Below, piece by piece: positions 22,369 to 40,868 of a stretch of 64,000 nucleotides of DNA. The DNA is from an uncultured Planctomycetales bacterium (lineage in GTDB: Bacteria; Planctomycetota; Phycisphaerae; UBA1845; JAFGLZ01). Within the stretch, counting starts at the first letter, position 1. The number at the start of each line of letters is the position of its first letter. The stretch lies in the NCBI GenBank assembly GCA_964622545.1, contig CAZUQM010000012.1:92054-156053 (forward strand), given 5' to 3'. The notes under the pieces are model-generated. The model did no database searches. It saw only the letters and a program-made list of their open reading frames with translations, and was not told the DNA's origin. A program made the translations under genes and the position numbers.

Positions 22369-22431
22369 GGCGTGCTGACCACACTTGTTTCGGTGGGTTC
22401 CGATCACGAGGGCGAGACGCCCCTCAGAGCC

Positions 22432-22491
22432 GCGACCGTGAGGGAGCTGTGTTGTTGGAGCGCTGGAACAGCAACGCTCCCTCACGGTCGC
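22432..22491. repeat. perfect 16-bp inverted repeat with 28-nt spacer (possible bidirectional terminator or protein-binding site)
   Basis: GCGACCGTGAGGGAGC (22432-22447) and its exact reverse complement GCTCCCTCACGGTCGC (22476-22491). They lie in the 360-nt gap between convergent genes. There is no flanking T-tract. Confidence 0.7.
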
Positions 22492-22728
22492 ATCTCCGTC
22501 GCGGCATCGACCCGAAGTGGGAGCGTCTCCGACATTGACCCCGAAGCGGGGGAACCGACAAATTCAAATGAGTCGGACTACCAGTGCTGCATTTCAGACG
22601 TATCGCGACGACCTGTCCGAGCCGCCGGATTCATCCGGCGCGGCCGCGCGGCATGAATCTCGCGGCTCGAGCAGCAGCCGTGGCGTGTGCCGCGCTGTCC
22701 ATCGTCGCACGATTTGTGAAACGCGGCA

Positions 22729-23809: not shown

Positions 23810-23883
<74 letters not shown>

Positions 23884-23973: not shown

Positions 23974-24125
23974 TTAGCCCAATCACCCTCGACTGGGGGA
24001 AGTGTAGCCCGGTCGCCCTCGACTGGGGGAAGTGTAGCCCGGTCGCCCTCGACTGGGACGGATGGGGATGAAGCTACACAGCCGGGGGCGGCTGTACCAC
24101 ATCAGCCGGGGGCGGCTGTGCTCCA
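23974..24125 (+). repeat. REP-like composite palindromic repeat cluster 0 (upstream of the RM gene)
   Basis: One degenerate plus two exact copies of GTAGCCCGGTCGCCCTCGACTGGG, with spacer GGAAGT or tail ACGGATGGGGATGAAGCTAC. Two copies of the hairpin unit (A/T)CAGCCGGGGGCGGCTGT follow. Same orientation as the intragenic clusters. Confidence 0.85.
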
Positions 24126-24235
24126 TGACGCACCGCACCCTAGGGTCCTTACGCGTTCAACCGCTTTGTCCGATTCTCGGGACGACGTTCCCGTCACGCT
24201 CGACATCCCACCGCAAATACGTAAGACTCTCCGGC

Positions 24236-27200
24236 ATGTCAGCCCAGCTATCCCCAGCATCCTTCGTCGCTAAATGGTCGGGCACGGCGCTGTCCGAACG
24301 CGCCGCCAGCCAAGAGCACTTCATCGACCTGTGCCACCTACTCGGCCAACCCACGCCGGCCGACCACGACGCCACCGGCGCCGAATACACCTTCGAGAAG
24401 TCCGTCGCCGTCACCGACGCCGCCAGCGCCGGCTCCAAGGGCGACCACGGCTTCGCCGACGTCTGGTGGAAGGGCAAGTTCGCCTGGGAGTACAAGCGCA
24501 AGGGCAAGCACAAGGACCTCACCGCCGCCTACCGCCAGCTCTGCCAATACCGCGAGGCGCTCGAGAACCCGCCGCTGCTCATCGTCAGCGACATCGCCCG
24601 AACCGAGATCCACACCAACTTCACCGGCCGGGCGAAACAGGTCCACACCATCCTGCTCGAAGACCTCGCCGAGCCCGCCTCGCTCGACCTGCTCCGCCGC
24701 GTCTTCACCGACCCGCTCTCGTTCGAGCCCGAGGTCACCGCCGAGCACGTCACCGAGGCCGTCGCCAAGGAGATCGGCCAGCTCGCCCTTCAGCTCCGCG
24801 CCCGCGGCCACGACCCGCACGACACCGCGCACTTCCTCATGAAGTCCATGTTCTGCCTCTTCGCCGAGGACATCCGGCTCCTACCGGCCGACCTGTTCCA
24901 GAAGCTCGTCGGCCAGTGGAAGTCCGACCCCCCCGAGCTGACCAAGGTGCTCACCGAGCTGTTCAGCAAGATGCAGACCGGCGGCGCGTTCGGCGTCGAC
25001 AAGATCGCCTTCTTCAACGGCGGGCTGTTCGATGACGCCCCCGCGCTCGAGCTCACCGACGACGAGGCCAACGTCCTGCTCACGGCCGCCCGGCAAGACT
25101 GGGGCAGTGTCGAGCCGGCCATCTTCGGCACGCTGTTCGAGCGATCGCTCGATCCGAACACCCGCGCCCAGATCGGCGCCCACTACACCAGCAAGGACGA
25201 CATCCTGCTCGTGGTCGAGCCCGTCGTGATGACGCCGCTCCGGCGCGAGTGGGCCGACGTCCAGGCCAAGGTCGCCGAACAACTCGAGCGCCGGGCCGCG
25301 GCCAAGACCAAACCCACGCGGACCAAGGCCGACCGCGCTATCGCTGACCTGCTCGACGGTTTCATCCATCGGCTGGCGACGGTCCGCATCCTCGACCCGG
25401 CCTGCGGCTCGGGCAACTTCCTGTACGTGGCCATTCAGCAGTTGCTCGGTCTGGAGAAAGAGGTCATCACGTACGCCGCCCGGCCCGACATAGGCCTCGG
25501 CCTGTTCCCCCAGGTCCGCCCGACGCAGTTGCACGGCATCGAGGTCAACCCCTATGCGGCCGAGCTGGCGCAGGTGGTCATCTGGATCGGATATTTGCAG
25601 TGGATGCGCGACAACGGCTTCACCGCCCCCAGCAACCCGGTGCTCGAACCGCTCCAGACCATCGAGAACCGCGATGCGATCCTCGATGTAGCCCGGTCGC
25701 CCTCGACTGGGGGAAGTGTAGCCCAGTCGCCCTCGACTGGGACGGATGGGGATGAAGCTACACAGCCGGGGGCGGCTGTACCACAACAGCCGGGGGCGGC
25801 TGTACCACAAGAAGATGTAGCCCGGTCGCCCTCGACTGGGGGAAGTGTAGCCCAGTCGCCCTCGACTGGGACGGATGGGGATGAAGCTACGCCACATCAG
25901 CCGGGGGCGGCTGTACCACATCAGCCGGGGGCGGCTGTGCCACATGAGATCCCCGATGCCAAGGGTGGCCCGGCAAGCTACCGCCGCAATCTCCCTCACA
26001 TTCAACCCGGTCAGCGTCCCGTCTTCGTCACTTTCTGCACACACAAGGGATGGGAGCTGCCTGAGTCGGTACGAGACCTGGTCATCACACACTGTCTCCA
26101 TGACGATAACTCGAAGCTGCAGATGCACGCGCTCGTCGTCATGCCAGACCACGTCCACCTACTCTTCACCCCGGGTCACGACAGCTACGGAAACCCGTAT
26201 GGACTCGCTGAGATCATGAGTGGGATCAAAGGCGCGTCAGCGCACAGTATCAACAAAGCACTGAAGCGTAAGGGACGGGTGTGGCAGGATGAGTCCTTTG
26301 ATCACATTCTCCGCCGGAACGAGAACCTCTTCGAGAAGGGGGAGTACATCTGCCAGAATCCCGTGCGAAAGGGACTCGTCCAGGATGAGAACGACTATCC
26401 CTGGTTGTGGCGCGAAAGCCATGTAGCCCAGTCGCCCTCGACTGGGACGGATGGGGATGAAGCTACACAGCCGGGGGCGGCTGTACCACAACAGCCGGGG
26501 GCGGCTGTGCCACATCAGCCGGGGGCGGCTGTGCCACATAGGCCCACTATCCCACCCTGGCCCGACGCCGACTTCATCATCGGCAACCCGCCGTTTCTCG
26601 GCTCGAAGCTGTTCCGACAGCAGGGTCTCGATGACGAGTACATCCAGGCCATGTTCGACACGTATGAGATTCCCAACACGTCCGACCTGTGCTGCTACTG
26701 GTTCGAGCGGGCGCGACAGGAACTGGAGAAGAACCCACTGCTCCGCGCCGGCCTGCTTGCCACGCAAGGCATCCGCGGCGGAGCGAACCGAAAGGTCCTC
26801 GAACGCATCGAGGACACCGGCGACATCTTCCTGGCCTGGTCGGATCGCAACTGGGTTCTGGATGGGGCTCACGTCCACGTGTCGATCGTCGGTTTCGATA
26901 ATGGCACCGAAAACGAGCGTATGCTTGACGGCAAGCCCGTTTCCGACATCAACGCCTCACTCACCGGCGACATCGACACGGGCAAGGCGAGCGCCTTGGC
27001 AGAGAACACGGGTATCGCCTTCATGGGCGATACGAAGGGCGGCAAGTTCGACATCACGTGGGACGAGGCGCGGGCGATGCTGCCGCAACCCAACCCCACC
27101 GGCAGCTTCAACTCCGAAGTCGTTCGTCCGTGGGTAAATGGGCTAGACATCACGCGACGCGCTCGCAGTATGTGGATCATCGACTTCGGCTGCGACATGC

Positions 27201-28327
27201 CCAAGGACGAAGCTGCCGGTTACGATGTGCCCTTCGGCTATGTCGAGACGCATGTCTGGCCGACACGCAAGGACAACCGACGCGCTGCTTATGCGAAGCG
27301 GTGGTGGTTGCATGTTGAACCACGACCAGAGCTGCGGCAACGAATCGCGCCATTGTCGCGCTTCCTCATTACCCCGCGGCTTACGAAATACCGACTGATT
27401 GCTTGGCACGACCAGCGAACCCTTCCCGATTGCCAAGTGATTGCCTTCGCCCGGTCCGACGACTACTTCTTCGGCGTGCTACACAGCGCGGTGCACGAGT
27501 TGTGGGCGCTTCGGATGGGCACGCAACTTGAGGACCGTCCGCGCTACACGCCGACGACGTGCTTCGAGACGTTCCCGCTGCCCTGGCCGCCGGGCGCCGA
27601 GCCCAATGTAGCCCAGTCGCCCTCGACTGGGACGGATGGGGATGAAGCTACACAGCCGGGGGCGGCTGTGCCACATCAGCCGGGGGCGGCTGTACCACAA
27701 GAAGATGTAGCCCAGTCGCCCTCGACTGGGGAAAGTGTAGCCCGGTCGCCCTCGACTGGGACGGATGGGGATGAAGATACACAGCCGGGGGCGGCTGTAC
27801 CACATCAGCCGGGGGCGGCTGTGCTACATGAGGCAGCTACCTCGCAAACCGCCGCCGCGATCCACCAGCGGATCTCCGACGCCGCGTGCGAGTTGAACGA
27901 GCAGCGCGAGCGGTGGCTCAACCCGCCGGAGTGGATCGACCCCATCGCCGAACAGGTCGACGCCGAGGACGACTTCGCCGACGTGCCGGCCGACGCCCGA
28001 CCGCTGATCCGCCATTCGGCCATCATGGCCCGGGCGGCCAAGGACGCCCGGCTCAAGAAGCGAACGCTGACGAACCTCTACAACGAGCGGCCGACGTGGC
28101 TGCGGATCGCCCACGAGAAGCTCGACCGCGCCGTCCTGGCCGCGTATGCCCACGTCGACCCCGACGGCGACTGGAGCGAAGACTGGGCCGAGGTGTGGAC
28201 CGAGACCGGCGCGGGCCAACGGCTACCCGACGACCACCCCCTCGCCGCCCGCCGCGCCGAGATCGATCAGCGGGTGCTGGCCAACCTGCTGCGAATCAAT
28301 CTCGCGAGGGCCGCAGCCCGGAGCTGA
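24236..28327 (+). CDS. MmeI-family (Type IIL) single-chain restriction-modification enzyme / N6-adenine DNA methyltransferase, carrying in-frame REP and RAYT insertions
   Basis: ORF 24062..28327. The first 58 codons are translated repeat, so the probable start is ATG 24236 (MSAQLSPASFVAKWSGTALSERAASQEHFIDLCHLLG). Family blocks: nuclease-like GFADVWWKGKFAWEYKRKG, motif I ILDPACGSGNFLY, motif IV IIGNPPFLG, RPWVNG, WIIDF, CFETFPLPWP, TLTNLYNERPTWL. Two blocks are foreign to the family, at 25688-26539 and 27608-27829. Confidence 0.75.
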   Translation: MSAQLSPASFVAKWSGTALSERAASQEHFIDLCHLLGQPTPADHDATGAEYTFEKSVAVTDAASAGSKGDHGFADVWWKGKFAWEYKRKGKHKDLTAAYRQLCQYREALENPPLLIVSDIARTEIHTNFTGRAKQVHTILLEDLAEPASLDLLRRVFTDPLSFEPEVTAEHVTEAVAKEIGQLALQLRARGHDPHDTAHFLMKSMFCLFAEDIRLLPADLFQKLVGQWKSDPPELTKVLTELFSKMQTGGAFGVDKIAFFNGGLFDDAPALELTDDEANVLLTAARQDWGSVEPAIFGTLFERSLDPNTRAQIGAHYTSKDDILLVVEPVVMTPLRREWADVQAKVAEQLERRAAAKTKPTRTKADRAIADLLDGFIHRLATVRILDPACGSGNFLYVAIQQLLGLEKEVITYAARPDIGLGLFPQVRPTQLHGIEVNPYAAELAQVVIWIGYLQWMRDNGFTAPSNPVLEPLQTIENRDAILDVARSPSTGGSVAQSPSTGTDGDEATQPGAAVPQQPGAAVPQEDVARSPSTGGSVAQSPSTGTDGDEATPHQPGAAVPHQPGAAVPHEIPDAKGGPASYRRNLPHIQPGQRPVFVTFCTHKGWELPESVRDLVITHCLHDDNSKLQMHALVVMPDHVHLLFTPGHDSYGNPYGLAEIMSGIKGASAHSINKALKRKGRVWQDESFDHILRRNENLFEKGEYICQNPVRKGLVQDENDYPWLWRESHVAQSPSTGTDGDEATQPGAAVPQQPGAAVPHQPGAAVPHRPTIPPWPDADFIIGNPPFLGSKLFRQQGLDDEYIQAMFDTYEIPNTSDLCCYWFERARQELEKNPLLRAGLLATQGIRGGANRKVLERIEDTGDIFLAWSDRNWVLDGAHVHVSIVGFDNGTENERMLDGKPVSDINASLTGDIDTGKASALAENTGIAFMGDTKGGKFDITWDEARAMLPQPNPTGSFNSEVVRPWVNGLDITRRARSMWIIDFGCDMPKDEAAGYDVPFGYVETHVWPTRKDNRRAAYAKRWWLHVEPRPELRQRIAPLSRFLITPRLTKYRLIAWHDQRTLPDCQVIAFARSDDYFFGVLHSAVHELWALRMGTQLEDRPRYTPTTCFETFPLPWPPGAEPNVAQSPSTGTDGDEATQPGAAVPHQPGAAVPQEDVAQSPSTGESVARSPSTGTDGDEDTQPGAAVPHQPGAAVLHEAATSQTAAAIHQRISDAACELNEQRERWLNPPEWIDPIAEQVDAEDDFADVPADARPLIRHSAIMARAAKDARLKKRTLTNLYNERPTWLRIAHEKLDRAVLAAYAHVDPDGDWSEDWAEVWTETGAGQRLPDDHPLAARRAEIDQRVLANLLRINLARAAARS
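25688..25945 (+). repeat. REP-like repeat cluster 1 (intragenic, 258 nt)
   Basis: Two tandem composite units. Each is a 30-nt unit, a 44-nt unit GTAGCCCAGTCGCCCTCGACTGGGACGGATGGGGATGAAGCTAC, then two 24-nt ACAGCCGGGGGCGGCTGTACCACA-type units, joined by AGAAGAT. It translates as VARSPSTGGSVAQSPSTGTDGDEATQPGAAVPQQPGAAVPQED... Confidence 0.9.
25946..26422 (+). other. REP-associated tyrosine transposase (RAYT, HUH/Y1, IS200-like) coding segment without own start or stop
   Basis: 159 codons: EIPDAKGGPASYRRNLPHIQPGQRPVFVTFCTH...ALVVMPDHVHLLFTP (the HUH motif is HVH)...GRVWQDESFDHILR...GEYICQNPVRKGLV (catalytic Tyr helix)...DYPWLWRESH. It is flanked on both sides by GTAG-hairpin repeats. Confidence 0.8.
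26423..26539 (+). repeat. REP-like repeat cluster 2 (intragenic, 117 nt)
   Basis: One 44-nt GTAG unit followed by three ACAGCCGGGGGCGGCTGT hairpin units. It translates as VAQSPSTGTDGDEATQPGAAVPQQPGAAVPHQPGAAVPH. Confidence 0.9.
27608..27829 (+). repeat. REP-like repeat cluster 3 (intragenic, 222 nt = 74 codons)
   Basis: Same composite units in the same orientation and frame. It lies between host blocks CFETFPLPWPPGAEPN and AATSQTAAAIHQRISDAACELNEQRERWLNPPEW. Confidence 0.9.
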
Positions 28328-39647: not shown

Positions 39648-40868
39648 ATGGCAGACAAGAAACGGATTTTGTTCGTCGACGACGAGCCGAACATCCTGGC
39701 GGGGCTGCGACGCATCATGCGCCCCCTGCGCAAGGAATGGGAGATGGCCTTCGCCAACAACGGGCACGAGGCCCTGGCGATCCTCTCGGTGCGTCCCTTC
39801 GACGTGGTTGTGTCCGACATGCGGATGCCGGGCATGAACGGTGTGGAGCTGTTGAAGGAGGTCCGCAAGCACCATCCCGAAACGGTATGCATCGCCCTGT
39901 CGGGTGAGAGCGCAAAGGAAAGCGTCCTGAACTACGTCGGACCGATCCATCAGTATCTGCCCAAGCCTTGCGATCCGGAACTGCTGCGCTTCAGCCTCTC
40001 CAGAATCGCTGCGCTGCGAAACATCTTGTCGGTCGATAAGCTGCGAGCGGTCCTGGCGCTGCTGGAAGGCCTGCCCAGCCTGCCGTCGCTCTATCGCGAT
40101 CTGATGCGGCAGTTCGAGTCGCCGGACGGGTCGTTGCGGGAAGTGGGTCAGATCGTCTCGCGGGACATGGCCATGAGCGCCAAGGTCCTTCAGCTCGCCA
40201 ACTCCGCGTTCTTCGGAGCCAGGAACCACATCCCCAATCCCCATGCCGCGGTGGCCGCGCTCGGCATGGACACGGTCAAGGCCCTGGCCCTGAGCGTCTG
40301 CGTCTTCTCGGTGTTCGAGGACCGGGCGCTGAAGGAATTCAAGCTCCATCCCCTGTGGGAGCACAGCACCGCCGCGGCGGTGCTGGCCAAGCGGATCACC
40401 CTGGCCGAACAGAGCCCGCGTGAGGTGGTGGGTCGGGCGTTCACGGCCGGTCTCCTTCACGACGTGGGCAAGCTGGTGTTTGCCGCGATGCTGCCGATGG
40501 ATCTCCGCAAGGTCCTCACAGCAGTGCGCAGCGAAGGCAGGCCGATGCACGAGGTCGAGCGCGACATCGTGGGCGCCAGTCACAGCGAGGTCGGGGCGTA
40601 TCTGCTGGGGCTGTGGGGGTTCTCCGAGGAGATCATCGAGGCACTGGCCTACCATCATCGCCCGCGCGAGGCGGGCCGCACGGAGTTCGGTGTGCTGACG
40701 GCGGTCCACGTGGCCAACGTCCTGGCTCACCAACTCCATCCGTCGGACCTGCCCCTGGGGCAGATGCAGGTCGACCCGGTGTACCTGTCGGAAGTACGGA
40801 AGGCGTCACGACTCTCGGAGTGGCGGGATATCTGCTTGGCGGTAGCGCCCGAGGAAGTAGCCCTATGA
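39648..40868 (+). CDS. response regulator, receiver plus HDOD domain
   Basis: The REC domain shows ILFVDDEPNIL...DVVVSDMRMPGMNG. The C-terminal part is HDOD-like (GLLHDVGKLVF, HSEVGAYLLGLWGF). It starts 1 nt after the kinase stop. Confidence 0.9.
   Translation: MADKKRILFVDDEPNILAGLRRIMRPLRKEWEMAFANNGHEALAILSVRPFDVVVSDMRMPGMNGVELLKEVRKHHPETVCIALSGESAKESVLNYVGPIHQYLPKPCDPELLRFSLSRIAALRNILSVDKLRAVLALLEGLPSLPSLYRDLMRQFESPDGSLREVGQIVSRDMAMSAKVLQLANSAFFGARNHIPNPHAAVAALGMDTVKALALSVCVFSVFEDRALKEFKLHPLWEHSTAAAVLAKRITLAEQSPREVVGRAFTAGLLHDVGKLVFAAMLPMDLRKVLTAVRSEGRPMHEVERDIVGASHSEVGAYLLGLWGFSEEIIEALAYHHRPREAGRTEFGVLTAVHVANVLAHQLHPSDLPLGQMQVDPVYLSEVRKASRLSEWRDICLAVAPEEVAL

Follow-up and report, generated by a model that had tools for sequence, protein, structure and literature searches.

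The 64,000-nucleotide stretch analysed here (the window; positions 92,054 to 156,053 of contig CAZUQM010000012.1, from an uncultured Planctomycetales bacterium) carries a gene for a predicted MmeI-family restriction-modification enzyme whose reading frame runs through arrays of hairpin repeats and through a REP-associated tyrosine transposase (RAYT), where REP stands for repetitive extragenic palindrome. The two repeat units, here called unit 1 and unit 2, are probably the two orientations of a single REP family, which together with the RAYT would form a REPtron, its outermost REP heads facing outward, in frame inside the restriction-modification gene. The features concerned are as follows, forward REPs being copies of unit 1 and inverted REPs copies of unit 2.

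23974-24126, + strand: array C1, 5' of the host ATG; one degenerate forward REP, two forward REPs (the second of the 44-nucleotide form) and two inverted REPs
24236-28327, + strand: host gene, predicted MmeI-family type IIL restriction-modification enzyme (open reading frame, Pfam, PDB 5HR4)
25688-25816, + strand: array C2a, a 129-nucleotide composite of a forward REP, a long forward REP and two inverted REPs
25817-25945, + strand: array C2b, a 129-nucleotide composite of the same make-up; with C2a, the left arm of the putative REPtron
25946-26422, + strand: RAYT segment (TnpAREP-type Y1 HUH transposase), 159 codons (NCBIfam REP_Tyr_transpos, Pfam Y1_Tnp)
26423-26539, + strand: array C3, the right arm of the putative REPtron; one long forward REP and three inverted REPs
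27608-27706, + strand: array C4a, part of the REP-only in-frame array at site B
27707-27829, + strand: array C4b, part of the same REP-only in-frame array

Unit 1 was searched for as a 24-nucleotide (nt) pattern, GTAGCCCRGTCGCCCTCGACTGGG, and unit 2 as a 17-nt core, CAGCCGGGGGCGGCTGT, with the chance expectation taken from dinucleotide-preserving shuffles. Ten exact copies of unit 1 and one degenerate copy (at 23974) were found, where 0.00 were expected, together with thirteen exact copies of unit 2, where 0.08 were expected. All are on the + strand, which agrees with the count of about 11 and 13 same-strand copies given by the first-pass annotation of this DNA. The 24 matches are confined to some 3.9 kb (23974-27822, +); the pattern search found no copy of either unit in the other ~60 kb of the window, and a covariance model of the hairpins (see below), run with filters off on the 64 kb, detected outside the arrays a single weak and unrelated palindrome, at 40362. 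A search of Rfam returned no family matching the repeats. Within the window these REPs are neither dispersed nor mainly extragenic, 19 of the 24 copies being inside coding sequence.

The modules are built in a constant order, with a short forward unit (30-nt period) followed by a long 44-nt unit and then by two or three 24-nt units. The REP logic that the first-pass annotation had seen in them, a 5' GTAG next to a hairpin, is confirmed: GT[AG]G abuts an 8-base-pair (bp) stem with a 4-nt loop. The additional GTAGC...GCTAC closure proposed for the 44-nt form fared less well; the pairing ends are present in five of the six long units (the exception, at 27776, has GATAC), but they are not used in the predicted minimum-energy DNA structures of this unit.

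Hairpins were then gathered from the window and from nine other loci (designated by L numbers), and each was oriented by its CCCY loop. Oriented in this way, all 55 distinct sequences carry a 5' head, TGT[AG]G or TGGAG. Unit 1 has a TGTAG head, an 8-bp stem and a CCCT loop on the + strand, and unit 2, read on the minus strand as TGTGG[TC]ACAGCCGCCCCCGGCTGT, has a TGTGG head, an 8-bp stem and a CCCC loop, laid out as TGTGG-[TC]ACAGCCG-CCCC-CGGCTGT. In loci L010 and L013 almost no differences separate forward from inverted copies, which argues for a single REP family in two orientations. A covariance model of the oriented hairpins, built partly from the window's own copies, scored unit 1 on the + strand at 36-44 bits and unit 2 on the − strand at 20-44 bits, compared with 8-13 bits on the opposite strands. 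Judged by their sequences, units 1 and 2 are one GT[AG]G-headed REP family in which unit 2 is the inverted REP, so that the arrays would be mosaics resembling bacterial interspersed mosaic elements (BIMEs) or REPINs (REP doublets forming hairpins), and not the direct repeats that they had at first been taken for. A forward head (TGTAG...) opens each array, and likewise the REPtron as a whole, and an inverted one (...CTGTGC[CT]ACAT) closes it. Array C3 ends in ...CTGTGCCACAT, the head of its last inverted REP, and the edges of the C4 array are TGTAG... on the left and ...CTACAT on the right. Sixteen of 24 positions agree when unit 1 is compared with unit 2 in reverse complement; as RNA, the 129-nt module has a minimum-energy fold that pairs the two units (z = -2.3), whereas the DNA fold favours four local hairpins.

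The stems covary. Five of the eight stem pairs show changes on both sides (60 cells) in a set restricted to hairpins with at most one mismatch, and the observed score was reached by none of 500 shuffles. In the real structure 98.6% of cells pair, compared with 32-40% when the partner is slid by 1-3 columns, and the hairpin search gave three false positives in ~180 kb. The compensatory variants among loci are GTCG/CGAC, GACG/CGTC, GATG/CATC, GCCG/CGGC, GGTG/CACC and GGCG/CGCC.

The repeats had also been described as strand-asymmetric. When the units were folded on both strands this was true of the G form of unit 1 (R position of the stem; G in five copies, A in five), with -7.3 (+) against -4.6 (-) kcal/mol as DNA and -12.2 (+) against -9.2 (-) kcal/mol as RNA; it was not true of the A form (-9.3 (+) against -8.9 (-) kcal/mol as DNA) or of unit 2 (-8.2 against -7.9 kcal/mol), both of which are nearly equal on the two strands. 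The asymmetry of unit 1 is genuine, but it concerns one stem position in five copies that probably have a single origin. In the window the wobble of unit 1 is a G·T pair on the + strand, and the closing pair of the first unit 2 in four arrays is C·A on the + strand and hence T·G on the − strand. Across loci, in the REP-intrinsic orientation, there are eight G·U sequence types and one A·C type. The wobble asymmetry thus appears to track the head-bearing strand of each REP, which is + for unit 1 and − for unit 2, rather than the coding strand, a pattern that favours recognition of single-stranded DNA (ssDNA) by the RAYT over a purely mRNA-level role. It also agrees with the published strand specificity of TnpAREP, which binds and cleaves the single-stranded REP and not the complementary 'iREP', and which requires the GTAG (PMC8266576).

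It could be argued that the hairpins act instead in the host mRNA, on the sense strand, through transcript stability, ribosome pausing or the tuning of expression, with the G·U variation reflecting selection at the RNA level; function on the coding-sense strand had been the original suggestion. The G variant of unit 1 forms its G·T pair on the sense strand, where it is more stable by 2.7-3.0 kcal/mol than on the antisense strand, all of the arrays lie within one transcription unit, and an RNA function has been inferred from frequent G·T pairs in other REPs (Di Nocera et al. 2013, PMC3733652). Such a role is nevertheless unlikely. The wobble-compatible pair of unit 2 sits on the antisense strand, and it is on this point that the original suggestion found no support; across loci the wobbles follow REP head orientation and not the direction of transcription; the same REPs occur in intergenic DNA, in both orientations, beside stand-alone RAYTs (L008, L010); and no T-run terminators follow the hairpins.

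The RAYT segment passes the NCBIfam REP_Tyr_transpos model (NF047646) with 90.6 bits (cutoff 80) and fails the IS200 model (NF033573) with 23.6 bits (cutoff 55). In alignment with E. coli TnpAREP (PDB 4ER8) it keeps the HUH motif (HVH) and the catalytic tyrosine, within the strings PDHVHLL and EYICQNPVRKG, the latter placing the tyrosine in a YxxxNP context. Its 1524 homologues are typically 170-200 amino acids (aa) long. The window segment has no stop codon of its own and no in-frame ATG, and it is in the host frame on both sides; the only in-frame start candidate is a GTG inside the last upstream REP. It is therefore not a stand-alone gene of ~150-200 codons with its own start and stop. Its composition is distinct from that of the host, with 57.4% G+C compared with 65.9%, and with a third-position G+C of 0.72 compared with 0.92 in the N-terminal half of the host.

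The pairing of this RAYT with these REPs recurs. REPs of the same family lie within a few hundred nt of the RAYT in all seven independent loci that carry its clade, clade 1 (the window, L004, L006, L008, L010, L011 and L013), and none was found at either of two controls, the uninterrupted host locus L007 and L012, which carries a different Y1 class. Together with the covarying stems, this bears out the earlier proposal that the repeats are cognate to the embedded RAYT. Scans of sequence collections with the exact unit 1 pattern found two intergenic loci in one Planctomycetales metagenome-assembled genome (MAG) and one intergenic metagenome locus, none of them in the genome from which the window comes. 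At L008 (9758-10575) the REP spacings around a stand-alone, intergenic RAYT are also multiples of three (39, 39, 36); despite this codon-phased spacing, a stop codon separates most of those REPs from the RAYT open reading frame (ORF).

The host ORF spans 24062-28327, with a probable start at the ATG at 24236, and runs through C2, the RAYT, C3 and C4. The predicted protein has 1363 aa with the inserts and 1005 aa without them, and is identical to a database protein, P0121. It matches the Pfam domains MmeI_Mtase, MmeI_hel, MmeI_TRD and MmeI_C and aligns to MmeI (PDB 5HR4) over residues 52-851 with E = 4.5e-48. Its catalytic motifs are intact, with D-x-EYK for the nuclease, DPACGSGNFL as motif I and NPPF as motif IV. 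By these matches it has the architecture of the MmeI family, with nuclease, helical spacer, gamma-class N6-adenine methyltransferase, target-recognition and C-terminal domains. Many uninterrupted homologues match the insert-free 1005-aa sequence from end to end with 71-72% identity.

Two inserts lie within this protein. The larger, of 852 nt (284 codons), comprises the RAYT and its arrays and occupies site A, a coil just before methyltransferase motif IV; the smaller, REP-only insert of 222 nt (74 codons) occupies site B, in the linker that joins the target-recognition domain to the C-terminal helical domain. The third array, C1, covers 153 nt of the 5' leader. Both sites are coil in an AlphaFold2 (AF2) model of the insert-free protein (pLDDT, the model's confidence score, 85.6). 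The 852-nt element has no stop in the host frame and 2-12 stops in each of the other five frames, and the peptide of C2a and C2b reads VARSPSTGGSVAQSPSTGTDGDEATQPGAAVPQQPGAAVPQED.... Across loci 46 of 47 spacings between adjacent REPs are divisible by three, with nine distinct values. The inserts thus share the features of in-frame palindromic insertions, namely a length divisible by three, no stops, loop sites and intact host motifs. No target-site duplication is visible at the insert junctions. A T or a C precedes every forward head, always T in the window and L004, and this base may belong to the REP itself.

The same RAYT clade was found inside other proteins. Among the best 150 representative relatives of the window RAYT, about 12 are long proteins with the RAYT inside. 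Their hosts are valyl-tRNA synthetase, alanyl-tRNA synthetase (twice), PurH (twice), RecG, a hydantoinase, ThiE and another MmeI-type methyltransferase; other searches added GcvPB and a DUF7008 methyltransferase (embedded relatives P0387, P0354, P0370, P0368, P0361, P0272, P0381, P0268, P0241, P0033 (locus L011) and P0065). In these proteins the host Pfam profiles resume across the insert, and REP-derived peptides are present on both sides of the RAYT.

Within the host family, the best 120 homologues (P0121-P0240, the window's own protein counted) include 13 with an in-frame Y1 domain. Four of these have the window's RAYT clade, at site A in the window and at site B in P0159, P0176 and P0194. 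The other nine (P0138, P0164, P0177, P0179, P0182, P0186, P0196, P0203 and P0206; also locus L012, 10001-14239) have a Y1 of another type, always at site A, with NHVH and Y----Q motifs (GRGG.YLLTW...MANHVHLVV...NYVRNQ) and unrelated to the window RAYT. This type corresponds to class 3 of Quentin et al. 2018 (PMC6006769). The class-3 carriers have hairpin repeats of their own at sites A and B, for example CCCCGCG-TTCA-CGCGGGG and CCCGACAT-GA-ATGTCGGG, and in L012 240 of 247 positions of repeated 14-mers are within the host gene. Other homologues carry in-frame REP-only arrays of several families, and insertions in the host family as a whole cluster at the same four positions, all of which are coil in the AF2 model and loops in the alignment to MmeI 5HR4.

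Further repeat families are translated in frame at sites A, B and D of P0133, P0173, P0187, P0230, P0210, P0155, P0190, P0202 and P0204. One of these gives GEGRGEG/PSPLP-type peptides, and another gives HGQDARAT, the reverse complement of an GTAGCACGGGCATCTTGCCCGTG REP of which there are intergenic arrays in L002 (3480-3640).

Both persistence and turnover of the inserts can be seen. The class-3 Y1 inserts co-diverge with the N-terminal half of their hosts (r = 0.79), and the embedded state is therefore long-lived. Between the syntenic orthologues L004 (245-4246) and L005 (6001-9390), on the other hand, there is a difference of 618 nt that corresponds to the RAYT plus the second copy of a 142-nt REP array; the L004 RAYT thus lies between direct repeats, and L005 keeps one 'solo' array. 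Upstream of the insertion site the two genes share 95% identity and downstream of it 99.8%, and a divergent patch in them (~65% aa identity, insert-free residues ~652-787) suggests recent mosaic recombination. Monophyly of the carriers was considered and rejected, a neighbour-joining tree scattering them; this tree is confounded by module swapping. With the N-terminal half alone the class-3 carriers cluster, with one insert-free member, P0148, nested among them.

Signs of this swapping are seen in many pairs of host-family members: identity is 93-99% ahead of site A and 85-96% beyond site B, but only 51-65% in between. Identity of the N-terminal and middle segments is all but uncorrelated (r = 0.13), and fitted breakpoints cluster around insert-free positions ~503-506, ~599-604 and ~787-859, at or beside the REP hot spots A, C and B. 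From the sequences, this modular pattern looks like the swapping of target-recognition cassettes.

It may then be asked whether the RAYT has been exapted as a domain of the restriction-modification enzyme, for example to nick the arrays for exchange of target-recognition modules, with the linkers a selected part of the architecture. Y1 domains of two classes in the same loop in 13 of 120 homologues, the co-divergence of the class-3 inserts with their hosts, and the position of the inserts at the edges of a swappable cassette with its clustered breakpoints are all as this proposal would have it. Most members of the family, the window's closest relatives included, nevertheless have no insert, and the insert-free P0148 nests among carriers. 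Furthermore, the same RAYT clade is found inside unrelated housekeeping enzymes, and cassettes are exchanged between insert-free pairs also and at breakpoints away from the arrays (P0159 compared with P0161). Exaptation accordingly has little probability as the explanation of the arrangement.

Two further alternatives have very little in their favour. Long spurious ORFs are common in a window of 66% G+C, but that the host is a dead pseudogene, its open frame through 1.07 kb of insert a high-G+C coincidence, is very improbable given the stops in five of the six frames of the element, the divisibility of both intragenic inserts by three, the intact catalytic motifs, and the same layout in many diverged homologues and in essential genes. 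Equally improbable is that selection acts on the units as tandem repeats of the protein, for their linker peptides, and that the DNA hairpins are incidental. The units do follow the codon phase, and the peptides that they encode are of low complexity (Pro/Gly/Ser/Ala); but they are also present where nothing is translated, in the leader (C1) and between genes in other genomes, and elsewhere the same DNA is seen in other reading frames. The covariation of the stems disfavours this alternative, the peptides SPST, TPSS and PPSA matching exactly the compensatory stems GTCG/CGAC, GACG/CGTC and GCCG/CGGC.

If the arrangement is, as we consider probable, an in-frame REPtron of one two-orientation REP family, its behaviour may be pictured as follows. 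By analogy with the TnpAREP proteins of E. coli, S. maltophilia and Marinomonas studied in vitro, the hairpins would be ssDNA substrates of the RAYT, each on the strand with the 5' head. The arrays would be translated as flexible linkers rich in Pro, Gly, Ser and Ala, and the RAYT would be made as an internal domain of the host protein; insertion would then be nearly silent for the host and hard to delete, and embedding may in this way shield the REP-RAYT element from deletion. REP-only arrays could have been left behind, or locally seeded, by a RAYT-bearing unit, and solo arrays may come from recombination between the directly repeated arrays that flank it.

Several points weigh against this interpretation. 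Translation through the insert and activity of the internal RAYT domain are both inferred from sequence. Y1 transposases act as dimers with active sites in trans, and a RAYT domain tethered at both ends in a 150-kDa protein might fail to assemble such a dimer. The collection scans met REPs of the family in one MAG and one metagenome contig only, the window has none outside the 3.9 kb of the arrays, and any current mobility across the genome is thus hypothetical. The wobble asymmetry is based on few independent events, and the covariation set was limited at the outset to hairpins that pair well. In addition, at L013 (3800-8081) a type ISP restriction-modification gene is apparently split into several ORFs by the same RAYT clade, and the in-frame cases were found through protein databases, which biases them towards intact ORFs.

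A bolder extension of the in-frame REPtron can be offered tentatively, and we would give it a smaller chance of being right than of being wrong. The RAYT clade may have adopted an intein-like lifestyle without splicing, dispensing with a stop codon of its own and with any evident start and existing only as an internal domain of host proteins (restriction-modification enzymes, the two tRNA synthetases, PurH, RecG and GcvPB among them), joined by flexible REP-coded linkers, active in cis on its own REPs and protected from deletion by useful or essential hosts; in the restriction-modification gene the arrays at the domain linkers may at the same time aid the exchange of target-recognition cassettes.

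Upstream of the host gene there is one further feature close to the arrays.

23810-23883, + strand: tRNA-Arg(ACG) (ARAGORN; Rfam tRNA, 70 bits), upstream of the first REP array

The first, degenerate REP begins 90 nt past the 3' end of this tRNA gene, and the restriction-modification gene comes next; the neighbourhood of tRNA-Arg(ACG) might be an integration hot spot. A genomic island was considered and rejected, only the RAYT itself being compositionally distinct (57% compared with 66% G+C) with no shift over the whole gene. Two palindromes unrelated to the REPs, at 22427-22496 (35-nt arms, 80% complementarity) and 22613-22674 (34-nt arms, 82%), sit between an aconitase-like gene and a convergent nucleotidyltransferase gene.

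REPtrons have reportedly been treated by Nunvar in 2010 and by Ton-Hoang in 2012. In them a TnpAREP or RAYT is flanked by GTAG REPs or BIMEs, as in E. coli and with REPSm in S. maltophilia (Corneloup 2021, PMC8266576). The window unit resembles these in its RAYT with HUH and tyrosine motifs, in the 5' GT[AG]G on a perfect 8-bp stem with a short loop (8 bp and a 3-nt loop in REPSm), in the mixing of forward and inverted REPs in its arrays, and in the inverted arrangement of the outermost REPs around the transposase. It differs in lying in frame inside a coding sequence, with a RAYT that has no stop and no evident start, and in having 24 REPs within 3.9 kb and none elsewhere in 64 kb, where known REPtrons go with hundreds of dispersed extragenic copies.

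Palindromic in-frame gene insertions, the Rickettsia palindromic elements (RPEs), were reportedly described by Ogata in 2000. Among REPs, in-frame GTAG elements are known from Opitutus terrae and Thauera, where they sit in genes for DNA repair and for tRNA synthetases (Di Nocera 2013, PMC3733652), and REPs lie inside tnpAREP genes of subclass 2.4 (Quentin 2018, PMC6006769). Like these, the window palindromes are in frame in loops of an otherwise intact protein, in clusters that encode tens of residues; the hosts are enriched for DNA and RNA enzymes and G·T pairs are common. The 44-nt unit also resembles the 'double-foot' GT[AG]G...C[TC]AC REPs (PMC6006769). What sets the window apart is that the transposase is itself part of the in-frame insert.

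With IS200/IS605 elements the unit shares a Y1 HUH transposase, hairpin ends that would be recognised as ssDNA, the lack of a visible target-site duplication and clean presence/absence alleles. Unlike them it has inverted-REP ends in place of left and right hairpins on the same strand, it has no TnpB, and it falls below the cutoff of the IS200 model. Inteins and IStrons are likewise found in frame in conserved and often essential genes, at sites that are reused in homologues, and with presence/absence polymorphism between close relatives. However, no Hint or splicing domain (Pfam) and no ribozyme (Rfam) was found in the window insert; it presumably stays in the mature protein, which would tolerate it.

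In-frame intragenic REPs are thus known, and it is the RAYT nested in frame that appears to be new; a literature search of incomplete coverage found no report of a RAYT or complete REPtron lying in frame within the ORF of a host gene. In the analysis of Quentin et al. over-long proteins were set aside as fusions or as errors of annotation (PMC6006769). RAYT-carrying host genes are labelled 'transposase' or 'hypothetical', and their being dropped from earlier surveys as fusion errors makes the arrangement a matter for annotation also.

The spread of REPs and the effects of RAYTs on their hosts, helpful or harmful, are open questions, and RAYTs are regarded as single-copy, stand-alone, 'domesticated' genes. 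If the interpretation given here is true, a RAYT carried as a translated passenger at reused linkers, with its REPs confined to the gene, would represent a new strategy for the persistence of a transposase in bacteria. Such loci would be compact, self-contained systems in which cis-activity, strand specificity and excision could be tested. Furthermore, the REP arrays at the edges of a swappable specificity cassette offer a connection, open to test, between mobile repeats and the way in which recognition specificities diversify.

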